NCBI GenBank assembly: GCA_000995965.1
Contig: LBYD01000001.1
Location: 12,923 to 76,922 of the forward strand
From: Candidatus Moranbacteria bacterium GW2011_GWC2_40_12
GTDB taxonomy: Bacteria > Patescibacteriota > Minisyncoccia > Moranbacterales > UBA11712
Reading direction: 5' to 3'
DNA length: 64,000 nt
Shown: positions 1 through 22,925 of the stretch, piece by piece
Position numbering within the stretch: the first letter of the stretch is position 1
Layout of the letters: each line of letters starts with the position of its first letter
Translations under genes and position numbers: made by a program
The notes under the pieces: model-generated
Told to the model about the DNA's origin: nothing
Database searches by the model: none
Seen by the model: only the letters and a program-made list of their open reading frames with translations

Positions 1-698
1 GCGCGCAAAAAAAGGGAAAAATCAAAATAAAAGTCCATAACCCGCGCGATTACGCGGCCGACAAACACAAGACGGTTGACGATACGCCGTATGGCGGGGG
101 TCCTGGCATGATCATGAAAGTGGAGCCGATTTATAAATGTCTCGAGAAAATAAAATCCGAAATCAAGAATTTTTCTAAGGTTCGGCCTTTCCCTTCCTCG
201 AGCAAAGCTCTCGGAATTCCTCAAGGCCAAACCTTAAAAAATTCCTCAAAGTCGAACTTTTTTGGAATTTCTCAAAGTCGAACTTTATTATTTTCCGCCA
301 AAGGGAAGGAATACACTCAAGCTGACGCGAAAAGGCTCGCGAAATATGAGAATATAATAATGATTTGCGGGCGATATGAAGGGGTTGACGAACGGGTCGC
401 GAAGCATCTGGCGGATGAAGAAATATCAATCGGAGATTATATATTAACGGGAGGTGAAATTCCCGCGATGGCTGTCGTTGATTCCGTCACGAGGTTATTG
501 CCGGAAGTTTTGGGGAACAAGGAATCGGCAACAAAAGAGTCATTTTCCAAAAAAGGATATCTGGAGCATCCGCAATATACCAGGCCGGCTGAATTTCATG
601 GGTGGAAAGTGCCGGAAGTTCTTCTTTCGGGAGACCACAAGGAGATTGAGGAATGGAGGAAAGAGAATGCAAAAATCAAAATGCAAAAATCAAAATGA
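1..698 (+). CDS. trmD: tRNA (guanine37-N1)-methyltransferase TrmD, 5'-partial (runs off window start)
   Basis: In-frame translation from nt 3 gives HNPRDYAADKHKTVDDTPYGGGPGM..., then CGRYEGVDERV and GDYILTGGEIPAM, which are canonical TrmD motifs. The ORF track lists only 108..698 because of the internal Met. It contains an in-frame tandem repeat insertion (see findings). Confidence 0.85.
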   Translation, partial: AQKKGKIKIKVHNPRDYAADKHKTVDDTPYGGGPGMIMKVEPIYKCLEKIKSEIKNFSKVRPFPSSSKALGIPQGQTLKNSSKSNFFGISQSRTLLFSAKGKEYTQADAKRLAKYENIIMICGRYEGVDERVAKHLADEEISIGDYILTGGEIPAMAVVDSVTRLLPEVLGNKESATKESFSKKGYLEHPQYTRPAEFHGWKVPEVLLSGDHKEIEEWRKENAKIKMQKSK

Positions 699-828
699 CA
701 ATTCAAAATGTTAAAGTGCCTTTGCTATTGAGGCTTTTAAGTTCAAAGTTTTTTTGCATTGTCATTTTTTCAGCCAAAGGCTGATCTGCCTCTGGCATGA
801 CATTTTTATTTTTTAATTTTACACTTGA

Positions 829-1932
829 GTGAAAAGCACGAACAAGCCTGACCAAATCCTCACCATCACCACCTTTGCCCTCATTGTTTTTGGGCTGGTT
901 ATGATTTCTTCAGCGGGAGTGGCGCTCTCTCAGCATCGCTTCAATGACGGCTATTATTTCTTCAAGCACCAGCTTTTTTACGGAGTTCTGCCGGGCCTTT
1001 TTATGATGTATATAGCCCAAAAAATAGATTATCATTTTTGGCGCCGAATCGCTTTTTTGCTTTTCGCGGCCAATCTAATTTTGCTGATCCTTGTTTTTAT
1101 ACCCGGTGTAGGGCTCCGGTTCCAGGGAGCCAGCCGCTGGATAACCCTTGGACCTTTTTCCTTCCAACCAACTGAAATGCTGAAACTCACGATGATCTTG
1201 TATCTTGCGGCCTGGCTTGAAAGCAAAAAAGATCTGAAGAGGGATTTATTCGAGGGATTTTTTCCCTTTTTGGCGATTCTTGGGATTGTGGGATTTCTCA
1301 TCATCAAGCAGCCGGATATGGGGACGCTCGGGACAATTGTTGTCATTTCAGTGATAATATTCTTTCTTTCCGGCGCCAAAACTGCTCACATCGCATCCAT
1401 GGCCGGCATGGGCATACTTGCTTTTTTTGCTTTGGTGAAATTTGAATCCTATCGAATGAACCGGCTTCTTGTGTTTCTTCATCCGGAGCTGGATCCGCGC
1501 GGGATAGGATACCAGATCAATCAGGCACTTCTCGCGATCGGATCAGGAGGCCTGTTTGGATTAGGATTGGGACATAGCCGGCAGAAGTTCAATTATCTTC
1601 CGGAACCAGTTGGAGATTCCATTTTTGCCATAATTTGCGAAGAAATCGGGCTCATTGGAGCGGCAATGCTGATATTGTTGTTCGTAGTTTTCGCCATGAG
1701 GGGGCTCAAAATTGCAAAAAAGGCACCGGATATGTTCGGAAAACTGATTGCAATCGGCATAACTTCCTGGATAATTTTTCAGGCTTTGATCAATATTTCT
1801 GCCATTACCGGCCTCATTCCGCTGACAGGAGTCACTCTTCCTTTCATCAGCTATGGCGGGACGTCGATTATTTTCTCCATGGTCGGAGTTGGAATCCTGT
1901 TGAATATTTCCAAAAAGTGTGGGAAAATATAA
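829..1932 (+). CDS. ftsW: SEDS-family peptidoglycan glycosyltransferase (FtsW/RodA)
   Basis: 367-aa polytopic membrane protein with an FtsW/RodA-like sequence (…GASRWITLGPFSFQPTEMLK…, PEPVGDSIFAII, SYGGTSI). It uses a GTG start and sits immediately upstream of murG. Confidence 0.8.
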   Translation: MKSTNKPDQILTITTFALIVFGLVMISSAGVALSQHRFNDGYYFFKHQLFYGVLPGLFMMYIAQKIDYHFWRRIAFLLFAANLILLILVFIPGVGLRFQGASRWITLGPFSFQPTEMLKLTMILYLAAWLESKKDLKRDLFEGFFPFLAILGIVGFLIIKQPDMGTLGTIVVISVIIFFLSGAKTAHIASMAGMGILAFFALVKFESYRMNRLLVFLHPELDPRGIGYQINQALLAIGSGGLFGLGLGHSRQKFNYLPEPVGDSIFAIICEEIGLIGAAMLILLFVVFAMRGLKIAKKAPDMFGKLIAIGITSWIIFQALINISAITGLIPLTGVTLPFISYGGTSIIFSMVGVGILLNISKKCGKI

Positions 1933-1934
1933 TT

Positions 1935-3044
1935 ATGAGAATTGTATTAACGGGCGGCGGAACGGGAGGACACATTTTTCCCATCATTGCCGTGGCACAG
2001 GAGCTTAGAAAACAGGCAGGGGAGAAGAATGATGTCGAATTTCTTTTTCTGGGACCGGACGGAGAATTGGAAAGGGAGGCTATGGAAAAAGAATTTGTCC
2101 CCATGAAAAAAATTCAATGCGGAAAGATGCGCCGGTATTTTTCGCCGCTTAATTTTCTCGATATTTTCAAAATTCCCGTAGGATTTTTCCAGTCTCTTTG
2201 GCATCTTCTGGTTTTTATGCCGGACGCGGTATTCGCAAAGGGCGGGTATGCCAGCATTCCGGTCGCCGCGGCTGCCTGGATATATCGAATTCCGATCCTG
2301 ATCCATGAATCAGACGTTGTACCGGGCTTGGCCAATCAACTGATGGCAAAAGTTGCCAAAAGAGTGGCTGCATCTTTTCCGGGATCAGAAAAATTTTTTC
2401 CTGAAAGCAAAGTTTTTTTGACTGGCAATCCAATCCGTGAAGAAATGATCCGGGATGATATGGCAGGGGGAAAGGAAAAATTTTCTCTCCAGCCTGAAAA
2501 AAAAACCATTTTGGTTATTGGCGGCAGCCAGGGATCCAGGGTTATTAATCAGGCCATCGTGACTTTGCTTCCAAAAATCCTCAAGAAATGGCAGCTTATT
2601 CATGTGACCGGAAAGAAAGAATTTGAAAGCGTTGTTTCTGAAGCGGGAAAACTGGGCATAAAAGCTGGCCGAGAAGGATATAAAGTCTTCCCGTTTCTCA
2701 CGAAGGAGCTCCCATATGCCTTCGCGGCGGCTGATTTGGTTGTGAGCCGGGCGGGAGCCGTTACGCTCACGGAAATCGCGGCAAACAAAAAGCCGGCGAT
2801 AATCATCCCCATCAAGGGGTCAGCCAATAAGCATCAGGAGCAAAACGCCTTTGTTTTTTCGCAAGCCGGAGCGGCGGTCGTGCTTGAGCAGGAAAATCTT
2901 GGTGAAAATATTTTGTATTCGAAAATTGATCAGATAATAGATGACAAAGGACTTGGATTTGAGTTGAGTGAAAGAGTGAAAAGATTCTATAATCCGGAAG
3001 CGGCAAGGTTGATTGCCGGAGAAATAGCTAAGATCGCAAGTTGA
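1935..3044 (+). CDS. murG: UDP-N-acetylglucosamine--N-acetylmuramyl-(pentapeptide) pyrophosphoryl-undecaprenol GlcNAc transferase MurG
   Basis: MRIVLTGGGTGGHIFP N-terminus and a GT28 fold. The ATG at 1935 is in frame with track ORF 1635..3044, whose 5' extension overlaps ftsW and was rejected. Confidence 0.9.
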   Translation: MRIVLTGGGTGGHIFPIIAVAQELRKQAGEKNDVEFLFLGPDGELEREAMEKEFVPMKKIQCGKMRRYFSPLNFLDIFKIPVGFFQSLWHLLVFMPDAVFAKGGYASIPVAAAAWIYRIPILIHESDVVPGLANQLMAKVAKRVAASFPGSEKFFPESKVFLTGNPIREEMIRDDMAGGKEKFSLQPEKKTILVIGGSQGSRVINQAIVTLLPKILKKWQLIHVTGKKEFESVVSEAGKLGIKAGREGYKVFPFLTKELPYAFAAADLVVSRAGAVTLTEIAANKKPAIIIPIKGSANKHQEQNAFVFSQAGAAVVLEQENLGENILYSKIDQIIDDKGLGFELSERVKRFYNPEAARLIAGEIAKIAS

Positions 3045-3046
3045 TT

Positions 3047-3088
3047 CTAAGGCTAAGCCTTGGCGGCTCTGCCAAGGCTTAGCCTTAG
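3047..3088. repeat. Family C perfect hairpin (CTAAGGCTAAGCCTTGGC-loop-GCCAAGGCTTAGCCTTAG); ends 9 nt before the patatin start codon
   Basis: 18-bp perfect inverted repeat with a 6-nt loop read directly from the sequence. Related copies are at 11986..12025 and 15329..15371. Confidence 0.8.
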
Positions 3089-3097
3089 AAAAATAAA

Positions 3098-4051
3098 ATG
3101 CAACGAAAGAAAATCGGTGTAGCCCTCGGCGGAGGAACAATGAGAGGGATGACCCACATCGGCGTTTTGGAGGTATTTGAGGAAAACAATCTCCCGATTC
3201 ATTTTCTTGTCGGCTGTTCAAGCGGGGCGATTGTCGCGGCCGCCTATGCATGCGGAAAATTGAAGGAACTCAAAGAAACGGCACTTCCTCTCAAAAACAA
3301 AGACCGCCGCAAAATGCTTGATTTGAGCTTTTCCGGCGGTGGCTTGATAAAAGGGGAACAATTGAGGTCCCTTTTTGATTTCTTGACCGATGGGAAAAAA
3401 TTTGAAGATATCAAAGGCTTGAAATTGGCTTTTGTGGGAACAGATGCCTTGACAGGAAACGAAGTCGTGATTGATTCCGGCAGCATTGCTGAAGCCCTTG
3501 AGATCACGACGGCTCTTCCTGGGCTTGCTCCGCTCAAGAGGCACCACGGGAGGCTGGTCTTTGATGGCGGGACAGCCATGCTTGTTCCAGCCAAAATTGC
3601 CTACAATTTTGGGGCGGAAGCTGTGATTGGGGTTGATGTGAGCGTAGGCAGAAGCGTTATCACTAGAACGGTAGGAGATTTCAGAAAAATGATGAGAAAA
3701 AGCACTTTGAGGCGGGTTTTGAATCCGGTTTTCAAAATGGGAGACAAGGCGTTGAATTCCAGCGAAGAAAAATTTTTCGGGAAAGTGCGGAATCTCATGA
3801 AAAAATTGAAACTGCTTGATGATTATGAAAAACATAAGTTCAATTTTTTCGAGGCTTATCTCATCGGTCTTCGAGCCATTAGCGCTGATTATAAAAAAGG
3901 CCTTTTCCTGGATGGCGACTGCGATATCGCGATTCGTCCGGACGTACTTCATTTCAAGCGCTCGGATATTTCCCAGACAAAAGAAATGATCGAAGAAGGA
4001 AGAAAGGCGGCAGAAAATATATTGGGAGAGATAAAAAAATTACTTTTGTAA
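3098..4051 (+). CDS. patatin-like phospholipase
   Basis: GGGTMRG oxyanion motif, GCSSG (GxSxG nucleophile) and a DGG catalytic Asp motif. Confidence 0.75.
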   Translation: MQRKKIGVALGGGTMRGMTHIGVLEVFEENNLPIHFLVGCSSGAIVAAAYACGKLKELKETALPLKNKDRRKMLDLSFSGGGLIKGEQLRSLFDFLTDGKKFEDIKGLKLAFVGTDALTGNEVVIDSGSIAEALEITTALPGLAPLKRHHGRLVFDGGTAMLVPAKIAYNFGAEAVIGVDVSVGRSVITRTVGDFRKMMRKSTLRRVLNPVFKMGDKALNSSEEKFFGKVRNLMKKLKLLDDYEKHKFNFFEAYLIGLRAISADYKKGLFLDGDCDIAIRPDVLHFKRSDISQTKEMIEEGRKAAENILGEIKKLLL

Positions 4052-4127
4052 TTTGCAATTGGTAATTTGAATTTGGATTTTTATTATTTCCTTATCCGAA
4101 TTACGGATTACTAATTACCAATTACGC
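4052..4127. repeat. Family B imperfect palindromic intergenic element (AATTGG/GAATTT-rich arms)
   Basis: aatttgcaattggtaatttgaatttgga ... tccgaattacggattactaattaccaatt, inverted arms. Family members are at 5511..5650, 7861..7975, 12397..12533 and 32172..32300. Confidence 0.6.
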
Positions 4128-5510
4128 ATGATAGATTTTTCAAAAGCGAAAAAAATATATTTTATCGGCATCAAGGGCTCTGGAATGGTGGCCCTGGTTG
4201 AAATTTTGCAGCGCCGGGGATGCCAGATTAGCGGGTCTGATACGGACGAAAAATTTTTCACGGACGATATTCTGAGGAAAAAACTGTTTGTGAAATTTCA
4301 CGAGGGATTTGACGCTGACCATATCACTGGCGACATTGACCTTGTCGTCTATTCCACGGCCTACAATGAAAAAAATAACGAAGAATGGAAAGCCGCGCGC
4401 TTCAAAAGGCTGCCGATGATTTCCTATCCCGAGCTCTTGGGGCTCCTTTTCAACGGCAAATACGGAATTGCGGTTTCAGGAACTCACGGGAAGACGACGA
4501 CTACGGCAATGCTCGCCGAAATTTTCAAGGCGTCCGGGTTTGATCCGACGGCTGTGGTGGGATCGCAAGTTCGCCAGTGGCGAAGTTCGGCTCTTGTCGG
4601 CCGGAGCGAGTTTATGATCATCGAAGCCGATGAATATCAGGGAAAATTCCGCTACTACAGCCCGCAGGCAGTCATTCTCACGAGTGTTGACTGGGACCAT
4701 CCGGACTTTTTTCCGACCTTTGAAGATTATAAAAAAACATTCGTTGAATTTGTCCAAAAAATTCCCCGCCATGGGTTTTTGGTAGTCTCGGGCGACCGGA
4801 GCGACACGCTTGAAATTGCCAAGGGCGCGAAATGCAATGTTTTGAAATATGGATTTGGGAAGGACAATGATCTGAAAATAAAAAACTATGAGATCGCGGG
4901 CGGAAAGCAAAATTTTGAGCTGGTATATGGCGGAAAAAACTTGGGGAAATTTGAGATTGAACTTCCCGGGCGCCACAACGCGCTGAATGCCGCGGCGGCT
5001 GTGGCAATGAGCTACAAATTCAACGCGGATATGAAAAAAGCGAAGGAGGCTCTGGCAAATTTTGAGGGAACAACGCGCCGATTTGAGTATATCGGCAAAC
5101 GAAACGGGGCGATTCTGATTGACGACTATGGCCATCATCCGGAAGAAGTGAAAGCCACTCTCAAGGCGGCGCGGGAATTTTTCCCCAAGCGCCGGATTTG
5201 GTGCGTTTTCCATCCCCATACTTTCACCCGGACAAAAGCCTTGCTTTCTGAATTTGCCCAAAGCTTTGAAGACGCGGACCGGGTGATTATTCTCGACATA
5301 TATGGCAGCGCGCGGGAAGTCCAGGGAGGAGTCCATTCAAAAGATTTGGTGGAACTCGCCAAAAAATACCACGTTAGTGTCGAATATATCCCGACGATTC
5401 CGGAAACGGTTGAATATCTCGCCGGCCAGATTGGCCGCGAGGACCTGGTCATCGCGATGGGAGCGGGAAATGTCTGGGAAGTAGCGGAGAAATTAGTATC
5501 TGAAATTTGA
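4128..5510 (+). CDS. murC: UDP-N-acetylmuramate--L-alanine ligase MurC
   Basis: IYFIGIKGSGM, GTHGKTTTTAML and the Mur ligase domain order. Confidence 0.9.
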   Translation: MIDFSKAKKIYFIGIKGSGMVALVEILQRRGCQISGSDTDEKFFTDDILRKKLFVKFHEGFDADHITGDIDLVVYSTAYNEKNNEEWKAARFKRLPMISYPELLGLLFNGKYGIAVSGTHGKTTTTAMLAEIFKASGFDPTAVVGSQVRQWRSSALVGRSEFMIIEADEYQGKFRYYSPQAVILTSVDWDHPDFFPTFEDYKKTFVEFVQKIPRHGFLVVSGDRSDTLEIAKGAKCNVLKYGFGKDNDLKIKNYEIAGGKQNFELVYGGKNLGKFEIELPGRHNALNAAAAVAMSYKFNADMKKAKEALANFEGTTRRFEYIGKRNGAILIDDYGHHPEEVKATLKAAREFFPKRRIWCVFHPHTFTRTKALLSEFAQSFEDADRVIILDIYGSAREVQGGVHSKDLVELAKKYHVSVEYIPTIPETVEYLAGQIGREDLVIAMGAGNVWEVAEKLVSEI

Positions 5511-5650
5511 AATTAGTTGGTGGAAATTAGAAATTTGTAATGGATAATTGAAATTGGGAATTGGTCCATTTTCTATTTTCCAGTTTCTATTACTATTTTC
5601 AATTTACCAAGAATCATTTTCTATTGAAATCTGAAAAATTAATACCAGAT
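5511..5650. repeat. Family B palindromic intergenic element
   Basis: gaaattagttggtggaaattagaaatttgtaatggataattgaaattgggaattgg ... ccagtttctattactattttcaatttacc, imperfect inverted arms. Confidence 0.55.
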
Positions 5651-6610
5651 ATGAACATTCAGGAGAACATCCCTTTGGCTCAATATACAACCCTGAAAGT
5701 CGGCGGGGCGGCGAGGTTTTTTTGTGAAGCAAAAAATGAAGAGGAAATTTCGGGAGCGGTGAAATTTGCCGAAGAAAAAAAACTGCCGGTTTTTGTGCTG
5801 GGCGGCGGAAGCAATATTTTGGTGAGCGACAAAGGGTTTGACGGAGTCGTTATACGACTCCGAAATTCGCAATTAGTAATTCGCAATTTGGATATTATTT
5901 GTCACGGTGGCTGCCAATTGAGTAAAGCCGTCAGTGAAAGCGTAAAAGCCGGCCTCACCGGCCTCGAGTGGGCGGCGGGGATTCCGGGAATGGTTGGGGG
6001 CGCGGTTTGGGGGAATGCGGGGGCGCCTTGGGGCTCGATGGCGGACTGTGTGGAATCTGTAAAAGTTTTGGATAAAAAAGATTTACGATTTAAGATTTAC
6101 GATTTAAAAAAATGCGATTTTGAATACAGAAACAGTATCTTTAAGCGAAATTCGAATTTGGTAATTTTATCTGTTAGCTTAAAGCTGAAAAAAGGCAAAA
6201 AAGAAGAAAGCGAAAAAAGAGTGAAAGAAATTTTGGCTCAAAGGAAAGAAAAGCAGCCCATGGATTTTCCTAGTTCGGGAAGCTTTTTTGCCAATCCCAC
6301 GATAAAAGATCAGAAAGTGATTAGTGAATTTGAAAGAGAAACGAATACGAAAGTAAAAGATAATAAAAATTTATACCAGAATTCCGGTTCGGAAGTAAAA
6401 ATACCCGCGGCTTATCTGATTGAAGAAGCCGGACTCAAGGGTAAAAAAATAGGCGGGGCGCAGGTGAGCGAAAAGCACGCAAATTTTCTGGTGAACGCGG
6501 GAAACGCGAAGGCGGAAGATTTCATCATCCTTGCCGCGGTCATCAAAACGCGCGTCCGAAACAAATTCGGCATCCAGCTCAGAGAAGAAGTGCAGATGGT
6601 GGGATTTTGA
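5651..6610 (+). CDS. murB: UDP-N-acetylenolpyruvoylglucosamine reductase MurB
   Basis: NIPLAQYTTLKVGGAARFF...VLGGGSNIL FAD-binding N-terminus and a MurB C-terminus. The start was chosen at ATG 5651, in frame with track ORF 5561..6610. It contains family A-like in-frame insertions. Confidence 0.85.
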   Translation: MNIQENIPLAQYTTLKVGGAARFFCEAKNEEEISGAVKFAEEKKLPVFVLGGGSNILVSDKGFDGVVIRLRNSQLVIRNLDIICHGGCQLSKAVSESVKAGLTGLEWAAGIPGMVGGAVWGNAGAPWGSMADCVESVKVLDKKDLRFKIYDLKKCDFEYRNSIFKRNSNLVILSVSLKLKKGKKEESEKRVKEILAQRKEKQPMDFPSSGSFFANPTIKDQKVISEFERETNTKVKDNKNLYQNSGSEVKIPAAYLIEEAGLKGKKIGGAQVSEKHANFLVNAGNAKAEDFIILAAVIKTRVRNKFGIQLREEVQMVGF

Positions 6611-6612
6611 AG

Positions 6613-6708
6613 TCATTACGAATTACTAATTCGCTTTGCTCTACGAATATACAAATTACGAATATTTTTGAATTTGTATATTCGTATAAGATTCGTAGTT
6701 CGTAAAGG
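6613..6708. repeat. Family A palindromic element (TACGAAT-type)
   Basis: cattacgaattactaattcgc...ctacgaatatacaaattacgaat / attcgtataagattcgtagttcgtaa. Left arms TTACGAAT x n, right arms ATTCGTA x n. Confidence 0.75.
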
Positions 6709-6737
6709 TTTACATTTTTCCAAAAAAAAATTATAAT
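6709..6737 (+). promoter_or_regulatory. sigma70-like promoter: TTTACA -N17- TATAAT, about 25 nt upstream of the DHS-like gene
   Basis: tttaca(6709-6714) + 17-nt spacer + tataat(6732-6737), read from the sequence. Confidence 0.5.
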
Positions 6738-6762
6738 TTAGAAGATATATTTTCTGAAAAAA

Positions 6763-7860
6763 ATGAAAGAAAAAAAATCTAAATTTAAAAAAATAGACGA
6801 AGCGTATGAGACAAAGCGCGATCTGAAGCATGACGGATTTTCCGATAACCTGAAACCGATTTCTTCGCTTGATTTGGGAAAAGCCGGGAACGTGGATGAG
6901 CTGGTGCGCGGAATGTCAAAGACCGCTTTCGGCGGAAGGAATCTCGGCGAAGCGGCGGATGTTCTCGAAGCGATGGTCCGTGACAAAGATTGCTTTGTCG
7001 TGCTGACGCTTTCCGGAGCAATGACGGTGGCAAAGATGGGCCTTTTGATTTGCGATATGATTGATCGCGGAATGGTGAACGCTGTTGTCTCAACAGGAGC
7101 GCTCATGACCCATGGCATGGTTGAGGGTTTTGGCATGAGCCACTTCAAGTATGACGAGGAAATGGACGATGAAAAACTTTACGCGTGCGGATATAACCGG
7201 GTTTATGACACGCTGGAACTTGAAAAAAATCTGGACGATCTGGAACTCATTGTATTCGAAGTTTTCAAAAGCCTGGATCATAAAAAAGTATATTCGAGCA
7301 ATGAAATCTTGAATGAAGTCGGAAAATATCTCCAAAAAAATACAGACAAAGAAAGAGCGATTCTCAAAAGCGCTTATGAAAAAAAAGTCCCGATATATAT
7401 TCCGGCCTTCACGGATTCTGAATTTTTTCTTGATATCGGGATCTTCAATCGGCGACAGAAACTTGAAAAGAAACCAATTCTGAACACAAGCGAATATCTG
7501 GACCTCGAACACTTCACGGAACTGATCAAAAAACAGAAAAAAATCGGTATTTTCACGATTGGCGGCGGTGTGCCGCGAAATTGGGCCCAGCAAGTGACAT
7601 GTTATCTCGACCTTATCGGGAAACGAGTGGGAGTCGGCGGAAAATTTTTGCGCTACAGTTATGGCGTCCGAATTTCCCCCGAGCCGGTGCACTGGGGCGG
7701 CCTCTCCGGATGCACGTATTCCGAAGGAGTGTCTTGGGGAAAAATGGTTCCTCCCAAAGAAGGCGGGCGCTTCGCCGAAGTTTATTGCGACGCGACGATC
7801 GCCTGGCCTATAATTTTGAAGGCGGTGATGGAACGGCTGGATAAAAAGTCTGGAAAATAG
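6763..7860 (+). CDS. deoxyhypusine synthase-like protein (DHS / homospermidine synthase family)
   Basis: CFVVLTLSGAMTVAKMGLL...MVNAVVSTGALMTHGMVEGFG, IGGGVPRNWAQQ and a C-terminal VYCDATIAWPIILKAV match the DHS family pattern. Confidence 0.75.
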   Translation: MKEKKSKFKKIDEAYETKRDLKHDGFSDNLKPISSLDLGKAGNVDELVRGMSKTAFGGRNLGEAADVLEAMVRDKDCFVVLTLSGAMTVAKMGLLICDMIDRGMVNAVVSTGALMTHGMVEGFGMSHFKYDEEMDDEKLYACGYNRVYDTLELEKNLDDLELIVFEVFKSLDHKKVYSSNEILNEVGKYLQKNTDKERAILKSAYEKKVPIYIPAFTDSEFFLDIGIFNRRQKLEKKPILNTSEYLDLEHFTELIKKQKKIGIFTIGGGVPRNWAQQVTCYLDLIGKRVGVGGKFLRYSYGVRISPEPVHWGGLSGCTYSEGVSWGKMVPPKEGGRFAEVYCDATIAWPIILKAVMERLDKKSGK

Positions 7861-7975
7861 TTGTATGAAGTTTGAAATTGGTAATGGAGAATAGAAAATT
7901 GAAATTCGTGACAATTTTCCAGTTTCAAATTTCCATTACAATTTTCCATTCTCTAAAAACAAATTTCAGATGATT
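7861..7975. repeat. Family B palindromic intergenic element
   Basis: gaaattggtaatggagaatagaaaattgaaattcgtgacaattttccagtttcaaatttccattacaattttccattctc, a long imperfect inverted repeat. Confidence 0.65.
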
Positions 7976-8022
7976 ACACAGTAAATATCTCAATCTTGAC
8001 ATGCAAAATAATATTCAGATTT

Positions 8023-8910
8023 ATGGATAAAAATCTTTACGAACAATGGCCGTTTAATTTTGGTTCGATCCATGAACAGGATTTTGAAAAGGCGAAAATT
8101 GTGATCGCGCAGATTCCCTATGACGCGACGAGCTCTTATGGAACCGGACAGCGAAACGGGCCCTTCGCGATCCTCAATGCGTCGCGCTATGTTGATGAGC
8201 TTTTGGACGCGCACGAAGGAAAATTGATCGGCCTCGAGCCAACTGACGTTTTCACGCTGGATGAAATTGTTGTTTCGCGAAACAGCGTTCCGGAAGCGAT
8301 GGCCGGAATTGAACAGGCAATCGAAAAAGAAATAGTTTCAAAAAACAAAAAACCGCTTGTTCTCGGCGGAGAGCATTCTATCACTTTTGGCGTCGTGAAA
8401 GCGCTCAAGAAAAAATACAAAGATTTATCGGTTTTGCAATTCGACGCGCATACGGATCTTTTGAACGAATATGAGGGCAGTAAACACTCCCACGCCTCGG
8501 TGATGCGGCGTATCCTTGATGAGGGAATTTCTTGTGCCCAAGTGGGAATCCGGAACATGAACGCGGAAGTTCAGGATTATATTTCGACGAACAAAAAACA
8601 CGCCAAAAATATCCATTTCGCGCCCGGAATCCCGCCGGTCGAAAATATTTTGAAAGGCCTCACAAAAAATGTTTATCTCACTTTTGATCTCGACGTTCTT
8701 GATCCGTCCATCATGCCGGCGGTCGGGACAGCCGAGCCGGGAGGGTTATACTGGAACGAAACAGTTGAGGCGATTGAAAAAATAAGCCAGAAAGTGAATA
8801 TCGTCGGCGCGGACGTGGTGGAACTTTGCCCGATTCCCGGCCTTGAAGCGCCAAATTTCTTGGCGGCGAAGCTGGTATATGAAATAATCAAAGCCATCTT
8901 GGCAAAATAA
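8023..8910 (+). CDS. speB: agmatinase / ureohydrolase family (arginase fold)
   Basis: GGEHSITFGVV, QFDAHTDL and TFDLDVLDPS Mn-binding motifs. The start was placed at ATG 8023, in frame with track ORF 7996..8910. Confidence 0.8.
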   Translation: MDKNLYEQWPFNFGSIHEQDFEKAKIVIAQIPYDATSSYGTGQRNGPFAILNASRYVDELLDAHEGKLIGLEPTDVFTLDEIVVSRNSVPEAMAGIEQAIEKEIVSKNKKPLVLGGEHSITFGVVKALKKKYKDLSVLQFDAHTDLLNEYEGSKHSHASVMRRILDEGISCAQVGIRNMNAEVQDYISTNKKHAKNIHFAPGIPPVENILKGLTKNVYLTFDLDVLDPSIMPAVGTAEPGGLYWNETVEAIEKISQKVNIVGADVVELCPIPGLEAPNFLAAKLVYEIIKAILAK

Positions 8911-8919
8911 CACAACCTG

Positions 8920-9504
8920 ATGGCGAGCAAAAATTTTGGAAAAGAATATTTTCGTTCCGGTTCGTATGAAGACTATAAAAAAGAAGCCGAACGGTGGGTG
9001 CCAAAAACTGCCCGGAAAATAAATAAAATTATCAGCAATAAACCGGCGAAGATCTTGGATGTCGGGTGCGCGCATGGGTACTTGATTGCCGAGCTCCAGA
9101 ATAAACATGGACATAGCGTGCGAGGGGTTGATTATTCGCCGTATGCCGTCAAAAATTCAGAAAAATCCGTTCGGGGAAAAATAAAGAGAGGAAATATTCA
9201 AAAACTAAATTTTCGGAAAAATGAGTTTGATGCCGTGATTTGTTTGGATGTAATAAATTACCTGGAAGAAAATAATATCCCAAAAGCCATTCAAAATCTG
9301 GCGGGAGTCTCGAAGAAATACATTTTTTTTGGCGCGATATTCAAGCATTCCTGGACGGCGAGCCAAAAATGGAATCCGGACAAGTTTCGGAAAAGCGTCC
9401 TCGCGAAAAAAGAATACATTGAAATTTTCAAGAAATACGGAGCAAAGTTTGCGGAAAGTTTCGATGGGGAAAATGGAGGTTCAATACTAGTGCTAAAGAA
9501 GTAA
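8920..9504 (+). CDS. class I SAM-dependent methyltransferase
   Basis: ILDVGCAHGYL (motif I), then VICLDVINYL. Lies 10 nt after the agmatinase stop. Confidence 0.7.
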   Translation: MASKNFGKEYFRSGSYEDYKKEAERWVPKTARKINKIISNKPAKILDVGCAHGYLIAELQNKHGHSVRGVDYSPYAVKNSEKSVRGKIKRGNIQKLNFRKNEFDAVICLDVINYLEENNIPKAIQNLAGVSKKYIFFGAIFKHSWTASQKWNPDKFRKSVLAKKEYIEIFKKYGAKFAESFDGENGGSILVLKK

Positions 9505-11395: not shown

Positions 11396-11447
11396 TTTTC
11401 AGGGTAGTCATTTTTATCTACGTGGATATAACTGACTACTTTTAATT

Positions 11448-11934: not shown

Positions 11935-11985
11935 ACAATAGTGGAAAAAGATGCGAAATAAACACAAAATTTGCCTTGTAGCTGT

Positions 11986-12025
11986 CTAAGGCTAAGCCTT
12001 AGCAGTTTCTGAGGCTTAGCCTTAG
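11986..12025. repeat. Family C hairpin (CTAAGGCTAAGCCTTAG ... GAGGCTTAGCCTTAG); ends 2 nt before the ATG at 12028
   Basis: Inverted repeat read from the sequence. Confidence 0.75.
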
Positions 12026-12027
12026 AA

Positions 12028-12396: not shown

Positions 12397-14573
<2,177 letters not shown>

Positions 14574-15114: not shown

Positions 15115-15328
15115 GAAATACCTCGTGAAGAAAATTTGTTCTTTGATTTAGAAAAGGATAGTTTAGAACATAGCTCGAATGGATTTAAAAATCACGATTA
15201 TTACTTTACCGTCACTATGCTTAGAGGCGGTCTTTTTTTTGCCCGTTTGACACAATTTAATTCGTATTATAAGATATGAGCAGATAAAAAAGCCCCAAAG
15301 GCTTTTTAAAAAAGGCTCAACAGGGAAT

Positions 15329-15371
15329 CCTGAGACTAAGTCTTGGGAATTTCCCAAGACTTAGTCTCAGG
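15329..15371. repeat. Family C-like perfect 20-bp hairpin (CCTGAGACTAAGTCTTGGGA-attt-TCCCAAGACTTAGTCTCAGG); ends 5 nt before the secE ATG
   Basis: Perfect inverted repeat read from the sequence. Confidence 0.85.
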
Positions 15372-15376
15372 AAACA

Positions 15377-15562
15377 ATGAACAAGCTTTGGACATTCACC
15401 AAAGAATCCCGCGCGGAGCTTCGGAAAGTCAATTGGCCCACCCGCGCGCAGACAATCAAATTCACCGGTGTTGTGATCGGAGTGAGTTTGGGAGTGGCGG
15501 TATTTCTTGGAGCACTCGATTATTTTTTTGAATATTTATCGAGAACGTTTATTGTGAAGTAG
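15377..15562 (+). CDS. secE: preprotein translocase subunit SecE
   Basis: 61 aa with a single C-terminal TM. Conserved position immediately upstream of nusG. Confidence 0.75.
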   Translation: MNKLWTFTKESRAELRKVNWPTRAQTIKFTGVVIGVSLGVAVFLGALDYFFEYLSRTFIVK

Positions 15563-15651
15563 ATTTACGAATTACGAATCTCTTACGAATATACGAATAA
15601 AATTCGTAATTAGTATATTCGTAGAGCGAAGCGTATTCGTAATTCGTAATA
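15563..15651. repeat. Family A palindromic element between secE and nusG
   Basis: gatttacgaattacgaatctcttacgaatatacgaat ... attcgtaattagtatattcgtagagcgaagcgtattcgtaattcgtaa. Confidence 0.8.
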
Positions 15652-15656
15652 AGTTC

Positions 15657-16202
15657 ATGGCGAAGCAAACCCAACATCACGGCCGCGCCTGGTATGCGAT
15701 TCACACCTATTCCGGATATGAAGACAACGTGGCCAAAAATTTGAAACAGAGGATCGAATCACTTGATATGCAGGATCGAATTTTCGACGTGATGGTTCCC
15801 AAGGAAAAAAAGATAAAGATCAAAAGCGGCAAGCGGTCGGTTATCGAAGAAAGAATTTTTCCGGGATATGTTCTCGTAGAAATGGTGGTGACGGATGATT
15901 CATGGTATGTGGTCCGCAATACTCCTAATGTCACAGGTTTCATAGGGATCGGAACGACTCCAACGCCGATTGCCCAGCAGGAAATCGACCAAATGAAAAA
16001 AAGGATGGGTGTTTCCGAGCCGAAATACAAGATTGATGTTTTGCGCGGCGACGCGGTGAAAATTGTTGACGGGCCATTCAAAGAATTTGACGGGAAAGTT
16101 GACGAGATTGACGAAGCCCGCGGGAAAATAAAAGTTCTGGTCTCGATATTTGGGCGGGAAACTCCGGTGGAACTCGATTTTTTGCAGATAAAGAAGATAT
16201 AA
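15657..16202 (+). CDS. nusG: transcription termination/antitermination factor NusG
   Basis: NGN domain (WYAIHTYSGYE) and a KOW domain (KIVDGPFKEFDGKVDEID). Confidence 0.9.
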   Translation: MAKQTQHHGRAWYAIHTYSGYEDNVAKNLKQRIESLDMQDRIFDVMVPKEKKIKIKSGKRSVIEERIFPGYVLVEMVVTDDSWYVVRNTPNVTGFIGIGTTPTPIAQQEIDQMKKRMGVSEPKYKIDVLRGDAVKIVDGPFKEFDGKVDEIDEARGKIKVLVSIFGRETPVELDFLQIKKI

Positions 16203-16204
16203 AT

Positions 16205-16306
16205 AACTCGCGAATTAAGTAGCGAATCGAAAGCGAATATGAGCGAACTTTCTAAAATGATTAGCTCTAAATTTGCGATTAATTAGCTATTCATTAGCGA
16301 GTAGTT
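16205..16306. repeat. Family A variant inverted repeat (AGCGAAT-type) in the nusG-rplK spacer
   Basis: ctcgcgaattaagtagcgaatcgaaagcgaatatgagcgaac ... gcgattaattagctattcattagcgagtag. Confidence 0.45.
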
Positions 16307-16309
16307 ATT

Positions 16310-16732
16310 ATGGCAAAGAAAATTAAAACAATTGTCAAACTTCAAATCAAAGCCGGACAGGCCAATCCTGCTCCTCCGGTCGGGCCGGCTTTGGGACAGC
16401 ACGGGCTCAATATCCAGGATTTTTGCCTGAAGTTCAACGAAGCCACGAAAGATAAAATGGGGGATGTGATTCCGGTCGAGATAACCGTCTATGAAGACAG
16501 AAGTTTTGATTTTGTTCTCAAAACTCCTCCAGCTGCCGAACTTCTCAAAAAGGCCGCCAAAATTGAAAAAGGTGCGTCTGATCCCCTGAAACAAAAAGTG
16601 GGAACAGTGACCAAAGAACAAGTCCGCAAAATTGCCGAGACGAAGATGGTCGATCTCAATGCGAATGACGTCCAGCAGGCGATGAAAATCATTGAGGGAA
16701 CGGCCAGGAGCATGGGGATTAAAGTTGAGTAA
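16310..16732 (+). CDS. rplK: 50S ribosomal protein L11
   Basis: [35 protein letters not shown]. Confidence 0.92.
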
Positions 16733-16736
16733 TAAT

Positions 16737-16865
16737 TTTACGAATTACGAATCTCTTACGAATATACGAATCAAAAAATATTCGTAATCAGTACATTCGC
16801 AGAGTGAAGCGCCCGCCTGCAACGCTTTGCGCAGCAATGCGGGCAGGTATTCGTAATTCGTAAAG
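16737..16865. repeat. Family A palindromic element between rplK and rplA, carrying a nested 36-nt mini-element (16812..16847)
   Basis: The first 33 nt are identical to the 15563 copy (tacgaattacgaatctcttacgaatatacgaat). The right arm is interrupted by cccgcctgcaacgctttgcgcagcaatgcgggcagg. Confidence 0.8.
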
Positions 16866-16872
16866 AGATATC

Positions 16873-17517
16873 ATGGAAAAATCAGAAAGTATGCAATTAT
16901 CAATAACCGACGCTATCGCTGAAGTCAAAAAATCAGCGGTCGCCAAATTTGACGAGTCTGTTGAGGCGCATGTTCGCTTGGCGATCGATCCGAAGAAATC
17001 GGACCAGCAGGTGCGCGGCGTGGCTGAGCTTCCGCACGGGACGGGAAAGAAAAAGAAGATCGCTGTTTTCACAACGACGCAAAAGAAAGAAGCCGAAGAA
17101 GCGGGTGCGGATCTGGTCGGCGGTGAAGAGCTAATCGACAAAGTGAAATCTTCCGGAAAGATTGACGCTGACATTGCCGTTGCCACGCCTGAAATGATGC
17201 CGAAATTGGCGACAATAGCCAAAATTCTCGGTCCCAAGGGCTTGATGCCAAATCCTAAGAACAAAACGGTCACTCCCAAAGTAAAAGAAATCATTGAGGC
17301 GCTCAAAAAAGGGCGGGCTGATTTCAAAAATGACGATTCCGGAAATATCCATCAAGTCATCGGAAAAAAATCATTTGAAAACGTGAAACTCGAAGAAAAT
17401 TTCAAAGTATTTTTGGAGGCGCTCCGGAAATCAAAACCGGAGGGAGTCAAAGGAAAATTCATTAAAAGTGTTTCGATCTGCTCAACGATGGGAAAATCAG
17501 TCAAAATAAGCCAATAA
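16873..17517 (+). CDS. rplA: 50S ribosomal protein L1
   Basis: L1 family sequence (…VRLAIDPKKSDQQVRGVAELPHGTGKK…). Confidence 0.9.
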   Translation: MEKSESMQLSITDAIAEVKKSAVAKFDESVEAHVRLAIDPKKSDQQVRGVAELPHGTGKKKKIAVFTTTQKKEAEEAGADLVGGEELIDKVKSSGKIDADIAVATPEMMPKLATIAKILGPKGLMPNPKNKTVTPKVKEIIEALKKGRADFKNDDSGNIHQVIGKKSFENVKLEENFKVFLEALRKSKPEGVKGKFIKSVSICSTMGKSVKISQ

Positions 17518-17547
17518 TGAAGCAATATTTTCTTTATTTGATAAGGG

Positions 17548-17576
17548 TTGACATTGTTTTCAAAAAATTATAGTAT
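17548..17576 (+). promoter_or_regulatory. candidate rRNA promoter TTGACA -N17- TAGTAT
   Basis: Read from the sequence, about 450 nt upstream of the 23S 5' end. Confidence 0.35.
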
Positions 17577-17715
17577 TACAAAGCGAAACAAAACTAATCC
17601 TTAGGCATTCTAAATGAGAAAATTTGTTGTCAGTCTAATAATAAGAAGCGGATAAACTTTTGCGTTTTTCTTTTGCGCTCGAGCCCGCTTCACTGGAAGC
17701 GGTTTTTGTTTTTAG

Positions 17716-17756
17716 GTTACGAATTACGAAGCTATCACGAATATACGAATTACGAG
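17716..17756. repeat. Family A half-element (left arm only)
   Basis: ttacgaattacgaagctatcacgaatatacgaattacgag. Confidence 0.6.
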
Positions 17757-17835
17757 TTTTTAGCGCCGAGACGTTGGCTTATAAAAGTTATAATTCAACG
17801 TTTCCGTGCTAAAGGGAACTTTGACAATTTATGTA

Positions 17836-17872
17836 CCCGCCTGCAACGCTTTGCGAAGCAATGCGGGCAGGG
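17836..17872. repeat. Stand-alone copy of the 36-nt mini-element (cccgcctgcaacgctttgcgaagcaatgcgggcagg)
   Basis: Differs by 1 nt from the copy nested at 16812..16847. Confidence 0.7.
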
Positions 17873-18586
17873 GTGAAGCTGAAATTATGTTTTGATTCCA
17901 AGTCGGCGCGGGAAAATCCAAGCATAAGCCAAACAGCTTCAAAATATGGCGATTAGCATCAATTTAGTGGTTGCTAATTGCTGGTCTGTATCGTTCGCAC
18001 TCAAATGCGAGCGATGCAATTGCGATAGAGCGGTATTCATGAAGGGCGTATGGTGGATGCCTTGACTCAAGTGAGCGATGAAGGACGTAGCGATCTGCGA
18101 TAAGCCTCGGGGAGCTGATGAGCAAGCTTTGATCCGGGGATTTCCGAATGCGGCAACGCATCTCGATTCATATCGGGATATTACTGTCTGAATTCATAGG
18201 ACAGTGAAGCGTACCCAGGGAACTGAAACATCTTAGTACCTGGAGGAAAATAAATCCAAAAGATTCCGTCAGTAGTGGCGAGCGAAAGCGGAGAAGCCTA
18301 AACCGTTTCACTTCGGTGAAGCGGGGTTGCGAGATAATAACGTCCTATCTTGTAAAACGTTGAATATAGTTGTCAGCGTTTTACTCGACGGGAGTGAAGT
18401 TACAAATTGTTTTGTTAGCTGAACAATTCTGGAAAGTGAGACCAAAGAGGGTAATAGTCCCGTAAGCGAAAACGAAACAACTTTATTGTTATTATTCTCA
18501 AGTAAGGCGGGACCGGAGAAATCCCGTCTGAAGCCGGGGCCACTATAGCTCCAAGGCTAAATATCACTTGAGATCGATAGCGAACT

Positions 18587-18617
<31 letters not shown>

Positions 18618-20242
18618 GATGAGGGGAGTGAAATAGAACTGAAACCATATGCTTACGTAGAGTTGGAGCCCCGACGCAAGTCGGGGTGACAGCGTGCTTT
18701 TTGCAGAACGAGCCAACGAGTTAATTTTATGCGGCAAGTTTAACCCAGCATTGAATTTATAAAGTAAAAAACTTTAAGGAGGTTCCACAGTGGGAGACAA
18801 AAAGGAAATGAAATTATGGTTAATCATCCTTAGTTGTCCCTTTTTATGGTATATGGCAATAGCTTTAATATTGTCATATTTCTAAAGATAGAGGATCTCT
18901 ACGGCGTGGCGTGCGGAAATACTTCGTGCGCCCGCCGCAACTTTATAAGTTTGATGCTGGGGAAAACGTAGTGAAAGCGAGGCTTAATCGCCGAAAATAA
19001 GTCGCATGGATTAGACCCGAAGCCGGGCGAGCTACATATGAGCAGGGTGAACGCAGAGTAACATCTGCGGGAGGCCCGAACCCACGCGCCGTACAACACG
19101 CGGGGATGACTTGTGTGTAGAGGAGAAATTCCAATCGAGCTCGGCCATAGCTGGTTCTTCCCGAAATAGCTTGAGGGCTAGCGTCGGATAAATGATCACA
19201 GGAGGTAGAGCTACTGAATGAGGGATCGTGGAGCAATCCTAGGTCTCTCAACCAAACTCCGAATGCCTGATGATTTTATCCCGACAGTCAGAACGTGGGG
19301 GCTAAGCTTCACGTTCGAGAGGGAAACAGCCCAGATCGCAGTCTAAGGTCCCTAAATCTATGTTAAGTGGTAAAGGAAGTGAAGTCTCCGAGACACCTAG
19401 GAGGTTGGCTCAGAAGCAGCCATCCTTTAAAGAGTGCGTAACAGCTCACTAGTCTAGAGATTTCGCGCCGAAAATTCAACGGGGCTCAAACATAGTACCG
19501 AAGACGCGGACTCCAGCGCTTGCGCTGGTTTGGTAGGGAAGTGTCCTCATCTGCTGCGAAGCGGAAGGCGTGAGCCACCGTGGAGCGTTGAGGAGTAAGA
19601 ATGTTGGCATGAGTAACCGCAATGTGAGTGAGAACCTCACACGCCGAAAGTCCAAGGTTTCCTGGGCAATGTCGATCAACCCAGGGTTAGGCGGTCCTAA
19701 GGCGAGGCCGAAAGGCGTAGTCGATGGACAGCCGGTTAATATTCCGGCCCCGCAATATTATTCGATGGAGTGACGTACTCTAGTAGTCTCTGCCCCTTAT
19801 TGGATTGGGGTAGGCGCATTGAGGACGTTCGCGAGGAAAATCCCGCGAGCACAAATCCAAGATGCGACTGGAAGTCCGATTTATCGGGCGAACGGAGATG
19901 AGCAGGGTACCAGGAAAAACTTCTAAGGTTAATAATATTGCGTCCGTACTTAAAACCGACACAGGTGGACAGGGCGAGTAGCCCAAGGCGAACGGGAGAA
20001 CCCTCGTTAAGGAACTCGGCAAAACAACTAGACGTAACTTCGGGAGATGTCTTCCCCGACGCAAGTCGGGGTGCAATTAAAGATTCCAAGCGACTGTTTA
20101 TCAAAAACACAGGTCTCCGCAAACCCGCAAGGGGAAGTATGGGGGCTGACGCCTGACCAGTGCTGGAACGTTAACGGGAGCGGTGCAAGCCAATCCCCGA
20201 AGCGCCAGTGAACGTCAGCGATAACTATAATCGTTCTAAGGT

Positions 20243-20527: not shown

Positions 20528-20549
20528 AGCGAAATTCCTTGTCAGGTAA

Positions 20550-21914: not shown

Positions 21915-21972
<58 letters not shown>

Positions 21973-22015
21973 TGGCTGTTCGCCAATTAAAGCGGTACGC
22001 GAGCTGGGTTCAACG

Positions 22016-22887: not shown

Positions 22888-22925
<38 letters not shown>

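Follow-up and report, generated by a model that had tools for sequence, protein, structure and literature searches.

Heptamer-armed palindromic elements in the operon spacers of a Candidatus Moranbacteria genome and their association with GxxExxY nuclease-like genes

MITEs (miniature inverted-repeat transposable elements) and other small palindromic repeats of bacteria, such as the Correia/NEMIS elements of Neisseria, ERIC, RUP and RU-1/2/3, are about 90-130 nt long, have inverted arms and occur as dispersed intergenic copies. We describe an element with these same features, its arms built from the heptamer TACGAAT (family A), in a stretch of 64,000 nt from Candidatus Moranbacteria bacterium GW2011_GWC2_40_12 (contig LBYD01000001.1, positions 12,923 to 76,922; hereafter the window). 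Further points shared with MITE-like repeats are predicted co-transcription with neighbouring genes, presence or absence among relatives, nesting, and the existence of longer relatives that carry an open reading frame (ORF). The TACGAAT elements thus have the terminal inverted repeats, the dispersed copies and the insertion polymorphism between relatives that are used to recognise MITEs, but not the target-site duplication. They differ also in that their arms are periodic in 7 nt rather than being unique terminal inverted repeats, in that the ORF of the longer form encodes GxxExxY, a small protein of the PD-(D/E)XK fold, and not a known transposase, and in that the arm word recurs across phyla. 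We found neither the arm words nor any account of such a family in the literature, and no Rfam family matches them. We consider the TACGAAT elements to be a new variant within the small palindromic repeats, and, because they show no target-site duplication and have no known transposase, we do not place them in any named family.

Repetitive extragenic palindromes (REPs), their mosaic assemblies (bacterial interspersed mosaic elements, BIMEs) and the associated RAYT protein (TnpA-REP) provide a second comparison. As here, these palindromes lie outside genes, at gene ends within operons, have species-specific variants at conserved sites, and have a proposed single-gene partner that is flanked by the repeats. 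However, REPs are G+C-rich imperfect palindromes of 20-40 nt that carry the tetranucleotide GTAG/CTAC and have as their partner a transposase of HUH Y1 type, whereas the TACGAAT elements are 90-130 nt long, A+T-rich and heptamer-periodic, with two-part arms and a candidate partner of PD-(D/E)XK type; they do not answer the description of REP/BIME sequences, and the ORF enclosed in their longer form matches only TIGR04256/PF13366. The Rickettsia palindromic elements (RPEs) lie both between genes and in frame within essential genes, at permissive surface sites, and palindromes in such a position were found in the MurB genes of two relatives, L214 and L215 (L followed by a number denotes a locus or contig of a relative that was compared with the window). 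In contrast to RPEs, the repeated segments within murB of the window add no residues and do not fold, and the lineages concerned are the Candidate Phyla Radiation (CPR) and Bacteroidota.

Heptanucleotide repeats, which include the short tandemly repeated repetitive (STRR) sequences of cyanobacteria, the GGGAATC repeats of Xanthomonas (PMC4692102), and the direct TAACTGA repeats known from Beggiatoaceae, Cyanobacteria and Bacteroidetes, which adjoin start codons, occur in ribosomal-protein operons and are distributed patchily across phyla (PMC4679880), share with our elements the 7-nt unit, the intergenic site, the frequent position beside start codons and in ribosomal-protein operons, and a patchy spread across phyla that includes Bacteroidetes. 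Those repeats, for which no partner gene is known, form direct arrays in which the inverted form is exceptional (one instance in BOGUAY and a few in Xanthomonas), whereas the TACGAAT norm is an inverted pair of two-part arms (2 + 2 units) with a variable loop, another word and an enclosed protein family. Tandem 7-nt units are common to both, but long direct arrays were found only at some Bacteroidota-type loci (L036 and L209). Finally, the intervening sequences (IVSs) of 23S rRNA resemble the longer form of our element in having a small ORF in the loop of a hairpin whose long arms are complementary and which forms part of an essential unit that is highly transcribed. The IVS ORF, however, encodes a four-helix-bundle protein (PF05635) and not PF13366, the IVS arms are not heptamer arrays, and the window copies lie in mRNA spacers.

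The reading that we favour, to which we assign a probability of roughly 0.6, is that the TACGAAT elements are a copy-and-paste family of heptamer-armed palindromes linked to GxxExxY nuclease-like genes, with any effects on mRNA being secondary. The first-pass annotation of this DNA had listed family A copies as a dispersed palindromic family, and all of them were recovered: four full copies at 6616-6706 (minus orientation; TTACGAAT...GTTCGTAAA), 15563-15651 (plus), 16737-16865 (plus) and 25173-25264 (minus), a single plus-strand arm without return arm at 17716-17757, and a diverged plus-strand hairpin at 16203-16309, with a GCGAAT arm and an ATTAGC return arm. The arm word TACGAATTACGAAT, allowing up to two mismatches, matched the window 20 times against 0.78 expected from shuffled sequence, and TACGAATATACGAAT 8 times against 0.12. 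All four full copies fold better than dinucleotide shuffles, with z-scores of -5.5 to -8.3 (6616-6706, -31.3 kcal/mol, z -5.6; 15563-15651, z -5.5; 16737-16865, z -6.25; 25173-25264, z -6.5 on the plus and -8.3 on the minus strand). The dispersed palindromic family is thus real; the diverged hairpin folds weakly (z -2.3) and the single arm does not (z +1.05).

An alignment of the copies defines the unit as an outer arm of two heptamers, a spacer of 3-5 nt, an inner arm TACGAAT-A-TACGAAT, a variable loop, and the return arms. An asymmetric 10-nt bulge (GAGCGAAGCG and variants), present in all four full window copies, gives each its orientation, plus for 15563 and 16737 and minus for 6616 and 25173, the bulge of 6616-6706 lying on the 5' side as CGCTTTGCTC. 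Copies 15563 and 16737 are identical over 35 bases (TTTACGAATTACGAATCTCTTACGAATATACGAAT); this identity had been noticed before but put at 33 nt. The elements fit closely between genes: 6616-6706 begins 5 nt past the murB stop codon (6608-6610) and ends 2 nt ahead of a near-consensus sigma-70-like promoter of the next gene (6709-6737), 15563-15651 occupies the whole secE|nusG spacer from the first position after the stop codon to 5 nt before the nusG ATG, 16203-16309 and 16737-16865 fill the nusG|rplK and rplK|rplA spacers, and 25173-25264 lies between minus-strand genes at 23995-25164 and 25266-28838. The single arm lies between the terminator-like site of rplA (17685-17712) and the 23S rRNA gene. 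Every family A copy of the window is within its first 26 kb. The region 36000-56000 has a G+C content of 35-40%, against about 44% elsewhere, and consists of tightly packed genes; spacers are nearly lacking there, and heptamer hairpins are absent.

A second palindrome is nested in one of these copies. The G+C-rich, 36-nt plus-strand palindrome CCCGCCTGCAACGCTTTGCGCAGCAATGCGGGCAGG lies at 16812-16847, where it separates the inner from the outer return arm of element 16737, and a sequence match stands free at 17836-17871 on the plus strand (two in the window against 0 expected). A related G+C-rich palindrome (CCTGCCTGCCGGTAGGCAGG or CCCGCCTGC...GCGGGCAGG) was also identified inside TACGAAT or TAGTAAT elements of L031, L105 and L127, where its place between inner and outer return arm is constant across genomes, which suggests that it may have a preferred nesting site within the elements.

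Longer versions of the element provide its link to a protein. A DNA pattern scan returned four loci (L036, L006, L047 and L097) in which a GxxExxY gene (NCBIfam TIGR04256; Pfam PF13366, PDDEXK_3) lies between TACGAAT and ATTCGTA arms, the enclosed ORF matching only TIGR04256/PF13366. As an independent test, GxxExxY homologs were sought by protein and the contigs encoding them were then fetched. This yielded CPR homologs of 44-88% identity (L197, L200, L201 and L202/203) and homologs of a Bacteroidota protein that are 50-89% identical to it (L204, L205/206, L209 and L210), the latter on metagenome contigs of unconfirmed taxonomy. Including L129, which was identified by tblastn, nine distinct loci were found by protein homology alone, giving, with the four from the DNA scan, 13 arm-associated GxxExxY loci. 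Arms of nCGAAT type stand 5' of the ORF in 13 of 13 (L197 having CACTAAT instead), and a return arm (ATTCGn) follows the stop codon in most, with none seen at L201 and with arms further from the gene at L210 and L205. The polarity is constant throughout: 5' nCGAAT arm, ORF, 3' ATTCGn arm. Inverted 6-mers common to the 5' and 3' flanks were far more abundant around the nine homology-found genes than around 327 control genes from CPR loci (Mann-Whitney p 1.8e-5), with six of the nine above the control 95th percentile; this measure was used in place of the RNAduplex energy between gene flanks, which failed to discriminate GxxExxY genes (controls median -32 kcal/mol, p 0.015). We conclude that the arms are associated with GxxExxY genes.

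One of these loci connects the longer form directly to the window. L129 bears a frameshifted GxxExxY gene within its nusG|rplK spacer, flanked upstream by three GCGAAT and one GCTAAT and downstream by four ATTCGC/ATTAGC, which are the words of window 16203-16309. The window hairpin appears to be the gene-less counterpart of this GxxExxY-carrying element and, because L129 shares both spacer and words with it, we read the window hairpins as probable gene-less miniatures of a nuclease-carrying cassette. The GxxExxY family is listed as being of unknown function, with "multiple transfers" between divisions (PMC3424549), and we found no literature linking GxxExxY proteins to repeats. Residues D72, E82 and K84 are invariant, forming a D...E-x-K triad, and an AlphaFold model (predicted local distance difference test, pLDDT, 85.9) gave as best Foldseek matches Cas4 SSO0001, lambda exonuclease, tRNA-splicing endonucleases and the PD-(D/E)XK homing endonuclease I-Bth0305I; a sequence search against solved structures returned no match. 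From the modelled fold and the arms we infer that GxxExxY may have an enzymatic role in moving the cassette.

We compared the orthologous spacers of relatives to trace the behaviour of the elements. At about 70% nucleotide identity, L066 has TACGAAT elements in secE|nusG and nusG|rplK and a degenerate one in rplK|rplA, together with a TACGAAC/TACGAAA hairpin in the spacer orthologous to window 12397-12533. L041 carries an element in the spacer orthologous to that of copy 25173, with flanking genes at 75% nucleotide identity, and L089 has one at the place orthologous to copy 6616, after murB; the GAGCGAAGCG bulge of the window copies is absent from the positional orthologs of L066 and L041. L213 is 100% identical to window 346-9050 save for an 87-nt deletion in murB, and, because its identity switches to 80-88% after 9050, this contig is a mosaic or chimera. 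Its hairpins fill the same spacers with wholly different words (AACACGA, GGTCATT and TAAATCC), among them AACACGA in secE|nusG and TAAATCC where the window has 12397-12533, and the copies in its nusG|rplK and rplK|rplA spacers are paralogs of one another. The window hairpin at 11396-11447 is missing from L213.

A survey of nusG|rplK in 80 metagenome loci around rplK relatives found this spacer to be either empty (0-30 nt) or occupied by heptamer hairpins whose words are specific to each genome and include TACGAAA, AACGTTC, GCGAAT/ATTAGC, nnnGAAT, TACAAAA, GGTAGG/CCTACA, TTAACGA, GGAAATT and AAAGTTC. The hairpin of L122 has the words of window 16203-16309 (GCGAAT/ATTAGC), and near-identical copies, loops included, occupy both rplK-flanking spacers of L117, L123 and L213. 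Empty spacers were found in L118 (TAG-TT-ATG) and L119 (TAG-GAAATATTT-ATG), both with 89% RplK identity, and a filled one in L117 (TAG-[115-nt element]-GAAATATT-ATG), the comparison of L117 and L119 placing the insertion directly behind the nusG stop codon. Because words differ among relatives, copies within a genome are near-identical and some spacers are empty, the elements are copied between spacers and turn over rapidly, which does not fit a conserved structured RNA.

Two further observations concern insertion in these relatives. The 23S rRNA gene of L066 (6841-7328) is interrupted by hairpins whose arms are heptamer arrays (TTTCTAA x4 paired with TTAGAAA, and CAAAACG/GCAAAAC words), indicating that heptamer repeats also colonise rRNA expansion sites. 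L119 (2923-3050) and L183 have a palindrome-containing segment of about 95 nt (CCTCGATTTT..GCCAAATC.AAGATTTGG..AAAATCGGGAA) after a new rplK stop codon, behind which the 3' end of rplK is repeated, as though an element had inserted in the 3' end of rplK and supplied its own replacement C-terminus.

We investigated the wider distribution of the family by scanning one genome per species with the 28-base pattern TACGAATTAYKAAT-N3-15-ACGAATATACRAAT, which identified at least 116 loci and so extends the family well past the copies first listed. The matches listed are mostly from CPR (Moran-, Falkow-, Uhr-, Nealson-, Yanofsky- and Doudnabacteria, Paceibacterota, and metagenome-assembled genomes (MAGs) labelled Saccharibacteria), with about 19 among them from Bacteroidota MAGs; two Bacteroidota loci that we inspected bear typical non-CPR genes (deoC, an MsbA-like ABC transporter, MlaD-like and OstA-like proteins). 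The TACGAAT family is not restricted to this genome, being spread over dozens of CPR lineages as well as Bacteroidota. An earlier suggestion that such a family was uncatalogued for this kind of genome agrees with our finding no description, but the 33-nt unit is not peculiar to such genomes, being present in many CPR classes and in Bacteroidota. Some organism labels clash with content: CAZIWW01 (L066; CAZIWW010000003) is labelled "Bdellovibrionales", yet is syntenic with the window, and the same applies to the labels (Bdellovibrionales, Gammaproteobacteria) of L025, L059, L066 and other "TPA_asm: uncultured ..." MAGs. Single matches labelled Bathyarchaeia, Methylomirabilis and "Gammaproteobacteria" were not relied on. 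The arm pattern had 0 matches in 2.9 million viral contigs, and a phage vector was rejected on this ground.

Hairpins make up 60 of the 125 distinct matches listed, the remainder being single 33-nt arms. Across these listed matches, an element ends no more than 10 nt away from 37 of 58 neighbouring start codons and from 33 of 50 stop codons, some hairpins are located between convergent genes, and the single arms are polar, with the outer end within 15 nt of a gene boundary in 44 of 61 and the inner end in 8 of 61. These arm positions bear on the proposal that the heptamers are sites for a trans-acting binder (S1, Csp or CsrA-like) in a post-transcriptional regulon, as proposed for the TAACTGA repeats of Beggiatoaceae. 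An identical word across phyla would suggest a sequence-specific reader, and 26 of the 44 boundary-touching arms are at start codons, recalling the TAACTGA repeats, which end a few nucleotides upstream of starts, also within ribosomal-protein operons (PMC4679880). However, the other 18 follow stop codons, hairpins between convergent genes are not accommodated, the words are wholly different between close relatives at the same gene, so that there would be no stable regulon, and the sole candidate binder is the GxxExxY protein itself. We therefore regard this as a very improbable explanation, the least probable of those weighed here.

The first-pass annotation had also held that the copies within the conserved operon secE-nusG-rplK-rplA must be transcribed with it. 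A consensus scan detected a promoter-like site upstream of the operon (15247-15275) and a terminator-like site downstream (17685-17712), and none of either kind in the secE|nusG, nusG|rplK and rplK|rplA spacers. Because these sites lie only outside the spacers, the three spacer elements may reasonably be taken to be co-transcribed with the operon, as had been supposed. A promoter within the arm was considered on account of a TATATT hexamer in the reverse arm and rejected, since the scan calls none in the elements and many arms follow stop codons. Intrinsic terminators were likewise rejected, since no element was called by the scan, no T-run follows any element, and the sole plus-strand call near the operon is that at 17685-17712. 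Rfam 15 at gathering threshold matched only the 23S and 5S rRNA genes of the window, and a search of 15300-17900 at E<=1 left the elements without a match.

The operon context favours in part a different explanation, that the hairpins are selected cis-acting RNAs (3'-end stabilisers, RNase III sites or modulators of translation initiation) and not mobile DNA, their recurrence reflecting function. Relatives at 65-80% nucleotide identity do keep hairpins in the same operon spacers, the elements lie within one predicted transcription unit, the stems are long and stable, and the proximity of ends to start codons reported above would be expected. Yet among 23 hairpins between co-directional genes the sense strand folds better than the antisense in 10 and worse in 12 (mean +2.0 kcal/mol), so that the G:U signature of RNA-level selection is absent, and structured RNA was set aside as the primary explanation. 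Structural selection alone would not predict the wholesale change of words between relatives or the near-identity, loops included, within a genome; close relatives lack the element, single arms form half of the listed matches, and hairpins are also found between convergent genes. We consider this explanation unlikely as a whole, although a cis-acting RNA effect is compatible with the copy-and-paste reading as a secondary, exapted one.

Two side observations concern the same region. A GTGGGAG...ACCAC motif, which resembles an L1-binding autoregulatory site, is conserved upstream of rplA in many relatives (loci L121-L193); the rplK|rplA spacer of the window has a family A element in its place, and the motif is absent. 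Downstream, a near-consensus promoter (TTGACA-17-TAGTAT) and the terminator-like site 17685-17712 enclose a unit of about 125 nt (17548-17712) between rplA and the 23S rRNA gene, with a like arrangement in L066 (about 5990-6180). It has no Rfam match and may be a small RNA.

Under the copy-and-paste reading, the TACGAAT elements would be gene-less miniatures of a palindromic repeat that is mobile or at least spreads by copy-and-paste, and the GxxExxY protein would be the nuclease responsible for mobilising or "homing" the cassette, for example by cutting extruded arms or the hairpin, after which a filled copy would serve as template for repair. Its non-autonomous derivatives or landing pads would be the short hairpins. 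Those of the window would be co-transcribed in secE-nusG-rplK-rplA and at the murB 3' end, forming long mRNA hairpins that could act only as passive stabilisers or processing sites, and the turnover and conversion of arrays would reach permissive in-frame sites as well, giving rise to two concerted heptamer arrays in murB. We hold more tentatively a broader form of the proposal, which is possible but which we would not expect to prove correct: that GxxExxY proteins are the homing or mobilising nucleases of cross-phylum heptamer-armed elements which in CPR, together with gene-less miniatures, colonise the spacers of essential operons, rRNA expansion sites and permissive in-frame sites in proteins such as MurB, explaining much of the excess of heptamers in bacterial genomes.

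Several points weigh against the copy-and-paste reading. We found no target-site duplication or other transposition footprint at the copies or in the L117/L119 comparison, and no GxxExxY gene within the 64-kb window. The structural matches of GxxExxY cover only the generic PD-(D/E)XK core (template-modelling scores 0.43-0.48), and its ORF could be cargo landing in hairpin loops and not the mobilising agent. Gene conversion between spacers, without a dedicated enzyme, could by itself give the homogeneity within genomes. About half of the listed pattern matches are single arms rather than hairpins, the breadth of the family outside CPR and Bacteroidota is uncertain because some MAG taxon labels are unreliable, and the absence of viral matches leaves the route of cross-phylum transfer unexplained.

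If the copy-and-paste reading is correct, it would provide the first functional context for GxxExxY (PF13366), a large orphan family common in Bacteroidota, Cyanobacteria and CPR, and a testable hypothesis, that of a nuclease acting on TACGAAT-type arms. It would give a mechanistic handle on the bacterial excess of 7-nt repeats, a question that dates from 2007, and link it to small palindromic mobile elements. It would mean that the tiny, streamlined CPR genomes tolerate fast-turnover repeats within the operons that they conserve most, and even within the reading frame of an essential enzyme of the cell wall, with a bearing on annotation, on MAG binning and assembly, and on the evolution of CPR genomes.

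Within murB, the product of which is 100% identical to a protein listed by NCBI under "Candidatus Moranbacteria bacterium GW2011_G...", we identified two segments of heptamer repeats, both of them 7-nt tandem arrays according to Tandem Repeats Finder (TRF). Segment 1 (5864-5888, plus strand) reads AATTCGC AATTAGT AATTCGC AATTTGG and codes for RNSQLVIRNL; its internal repeat of 21 nt (3 x 7) falls below our threshold of 17 matches in 21 at lag 7. Segment 2 (6078-6105, plus strand), detected at lag 7, consists of four in-frame heptamers (GATTTAC GATTTAA x2) coding for DLRFKIYDL and has 18 of 21 lag-7 matches, being the only coding stretch of the window at or above 17/21, a level reached by 0.005 regions per window in codon shuffles. 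These segments had been taken for lineage-specific insertions similar to RPEs. Through both of them, however, the window MurB is no longer than Staphylococcus aureus MurB (PDB 1hsk) and 29 orthologs, with one 1-residue gap against 1hsk in each segment region and none against the orthologs, and neither segment folds (z -0.13 and +0.89). The murB segments are thus not insertions, and that claim is withdrawn.

Both segments nevertheless differ from ordinary coding sequence and evolve in concert, as repeat arrays do. In each of about 25 orthologs the two 7-residue copies of segment 1 vary together (for example QDTRYKIQDTK, HNTLYKIHNTS, SNFKFQISNFT and RDTRYAIRDTR), and at the codons of segment 2 L089 has GAATTAG/A/T/A, that is, the same T-to-A difference in 4 of 4 units. 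The window word, as TTTACGA TTTAAGA TTTACGA, is one base per unit away from the arm ATTACGA ATTACGA, and that of L089 is GAATTAn, hence the word is lineage-variable. The segment 2 site itself accepts insertions, with 10-50 extra residues in at least 11 of 30 aligned MurBs; the insertions of L214 and L215 are nested in-frame palindromes (fold z -5.6 and -6.2), and those of L214 and L216 contain heptamer arrays (4x AAATTTC and 4x ATATCCA). The likeness to RPEs therefore fails for the window segments, which are neither inserted nor folded, and survives for the site, where orthologs carry in-frame heptamer and palindrome insertions: a Rickettsia-like phenomenon is real in this lineage and at this MurB site, the window gene showing only a form with zero length gain. 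A third hot spot of MurB insertion follows FFKNP (alignment columns 301-355; window about 6300), where the peptides LRQGFGGQA, LHQGYGGQVDA and LLRQGSGGQAG resemble a translated G+C-rich CCyGCCTGC...GCrGGCAGG palindrome, and where the window and a subset of orthologs have in common an indel of 11 residues, NKNLYQNSGSE. The murB gene of L213 lacks 87 in-frame nt (29 residues, DIICHGGCQLSKAVSESVKAGLTGLEWAA), L213 5545-5546 corresponding to window 5892-5976 from the end of segment 1; this gap could reflect a defective allele, deletion mediated by the repeat, or an artefact of assembly.

The 7-nt-periodic hairpins of this genome comprise many word families, of which family A is one. Sibling hairpins were identified at 4052-4127 (right arm TCCGAAT TACGGAT TACTAAT TACCAAT TACGC), 5511-5610, upstream of murB (GAAATTn / ATTTTCn words), 7861-7960 (AATTTTCCA words) and 12397-12533 (nnnGAAT words of GAATTGG type), and further ones with arms of other words at 660-772 and 32163-32307. 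Window 12534-14573, which borders one of these, was considered as fusA, but this was ruled out by the Pfam matches of its L213 ortholog, which are those of gyrB. Like the ORF-carrying versions and the lack of an RNA-strand-specific pairing signal, these other word families were missed by the first-pass annotation.

Autocorrelation was highest at lag 7 in 12 of the 24 window spacers, compared with 2 of the 72 coding controls, and period-7 tandem arrays were confirmed by TRF. This dominance of period 7 in the spacers suits a further alternative, in which the hairpins are heptanucleotide microsatellites of the kind known as STRRs or long simple sequence repeats (SSRs), formed by slippage in place and later inverted duplication, with neither mobility nor a protein. 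Array length does vary, L209 and L036 having at least 12 units, the concerted change of the murB arrays is that expected of tandem arrays, and heptamers are the most over-represented class of long SSR in bacteria (Mrazek 2007, as cited in PMC4679880 and PMC4692102). However, the unit found across phyla is not a pure array but a fixed 33-nt arrangement with a conserved outer CTC, and non-repetitive bulges and loops are common to the copies within a genome; slippage in place cannot put near-identical complex copies in different spacers and leaves unexplained the association, in fixed polarity, with one protein family. We judge an origin by slippage alone to be quite improbable.

A separate repeat family in the window, at 3045-3090, 11985-12026 and 15328-15372, consists of perfect 18-22-bp hairpins (TCTAAGGCTAAGCCTTAG..., TCCTGAGACTAAGTCTTGGGAA...) that sit just past stop codons or just ahead of starts. 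LAGLIDADG-encoding insertions in 23S rRNA genes are typical of CPR, and the 23S rRNA gene of the window (18030-23050), which begins about 500 nt past rplA and is followed by a 5S rRNA gene (23275-23381), has at least two insertions encoding LAGLIDADG endonucleases (ORFs 20762-21226 and 22210-22677). The Rfam 23S match stops at 22065, yet 23S-like sequence goes on past the second intron, and further inserted segments, at 18738-18967 and 21508-21647, are bounded by inverted repeats.

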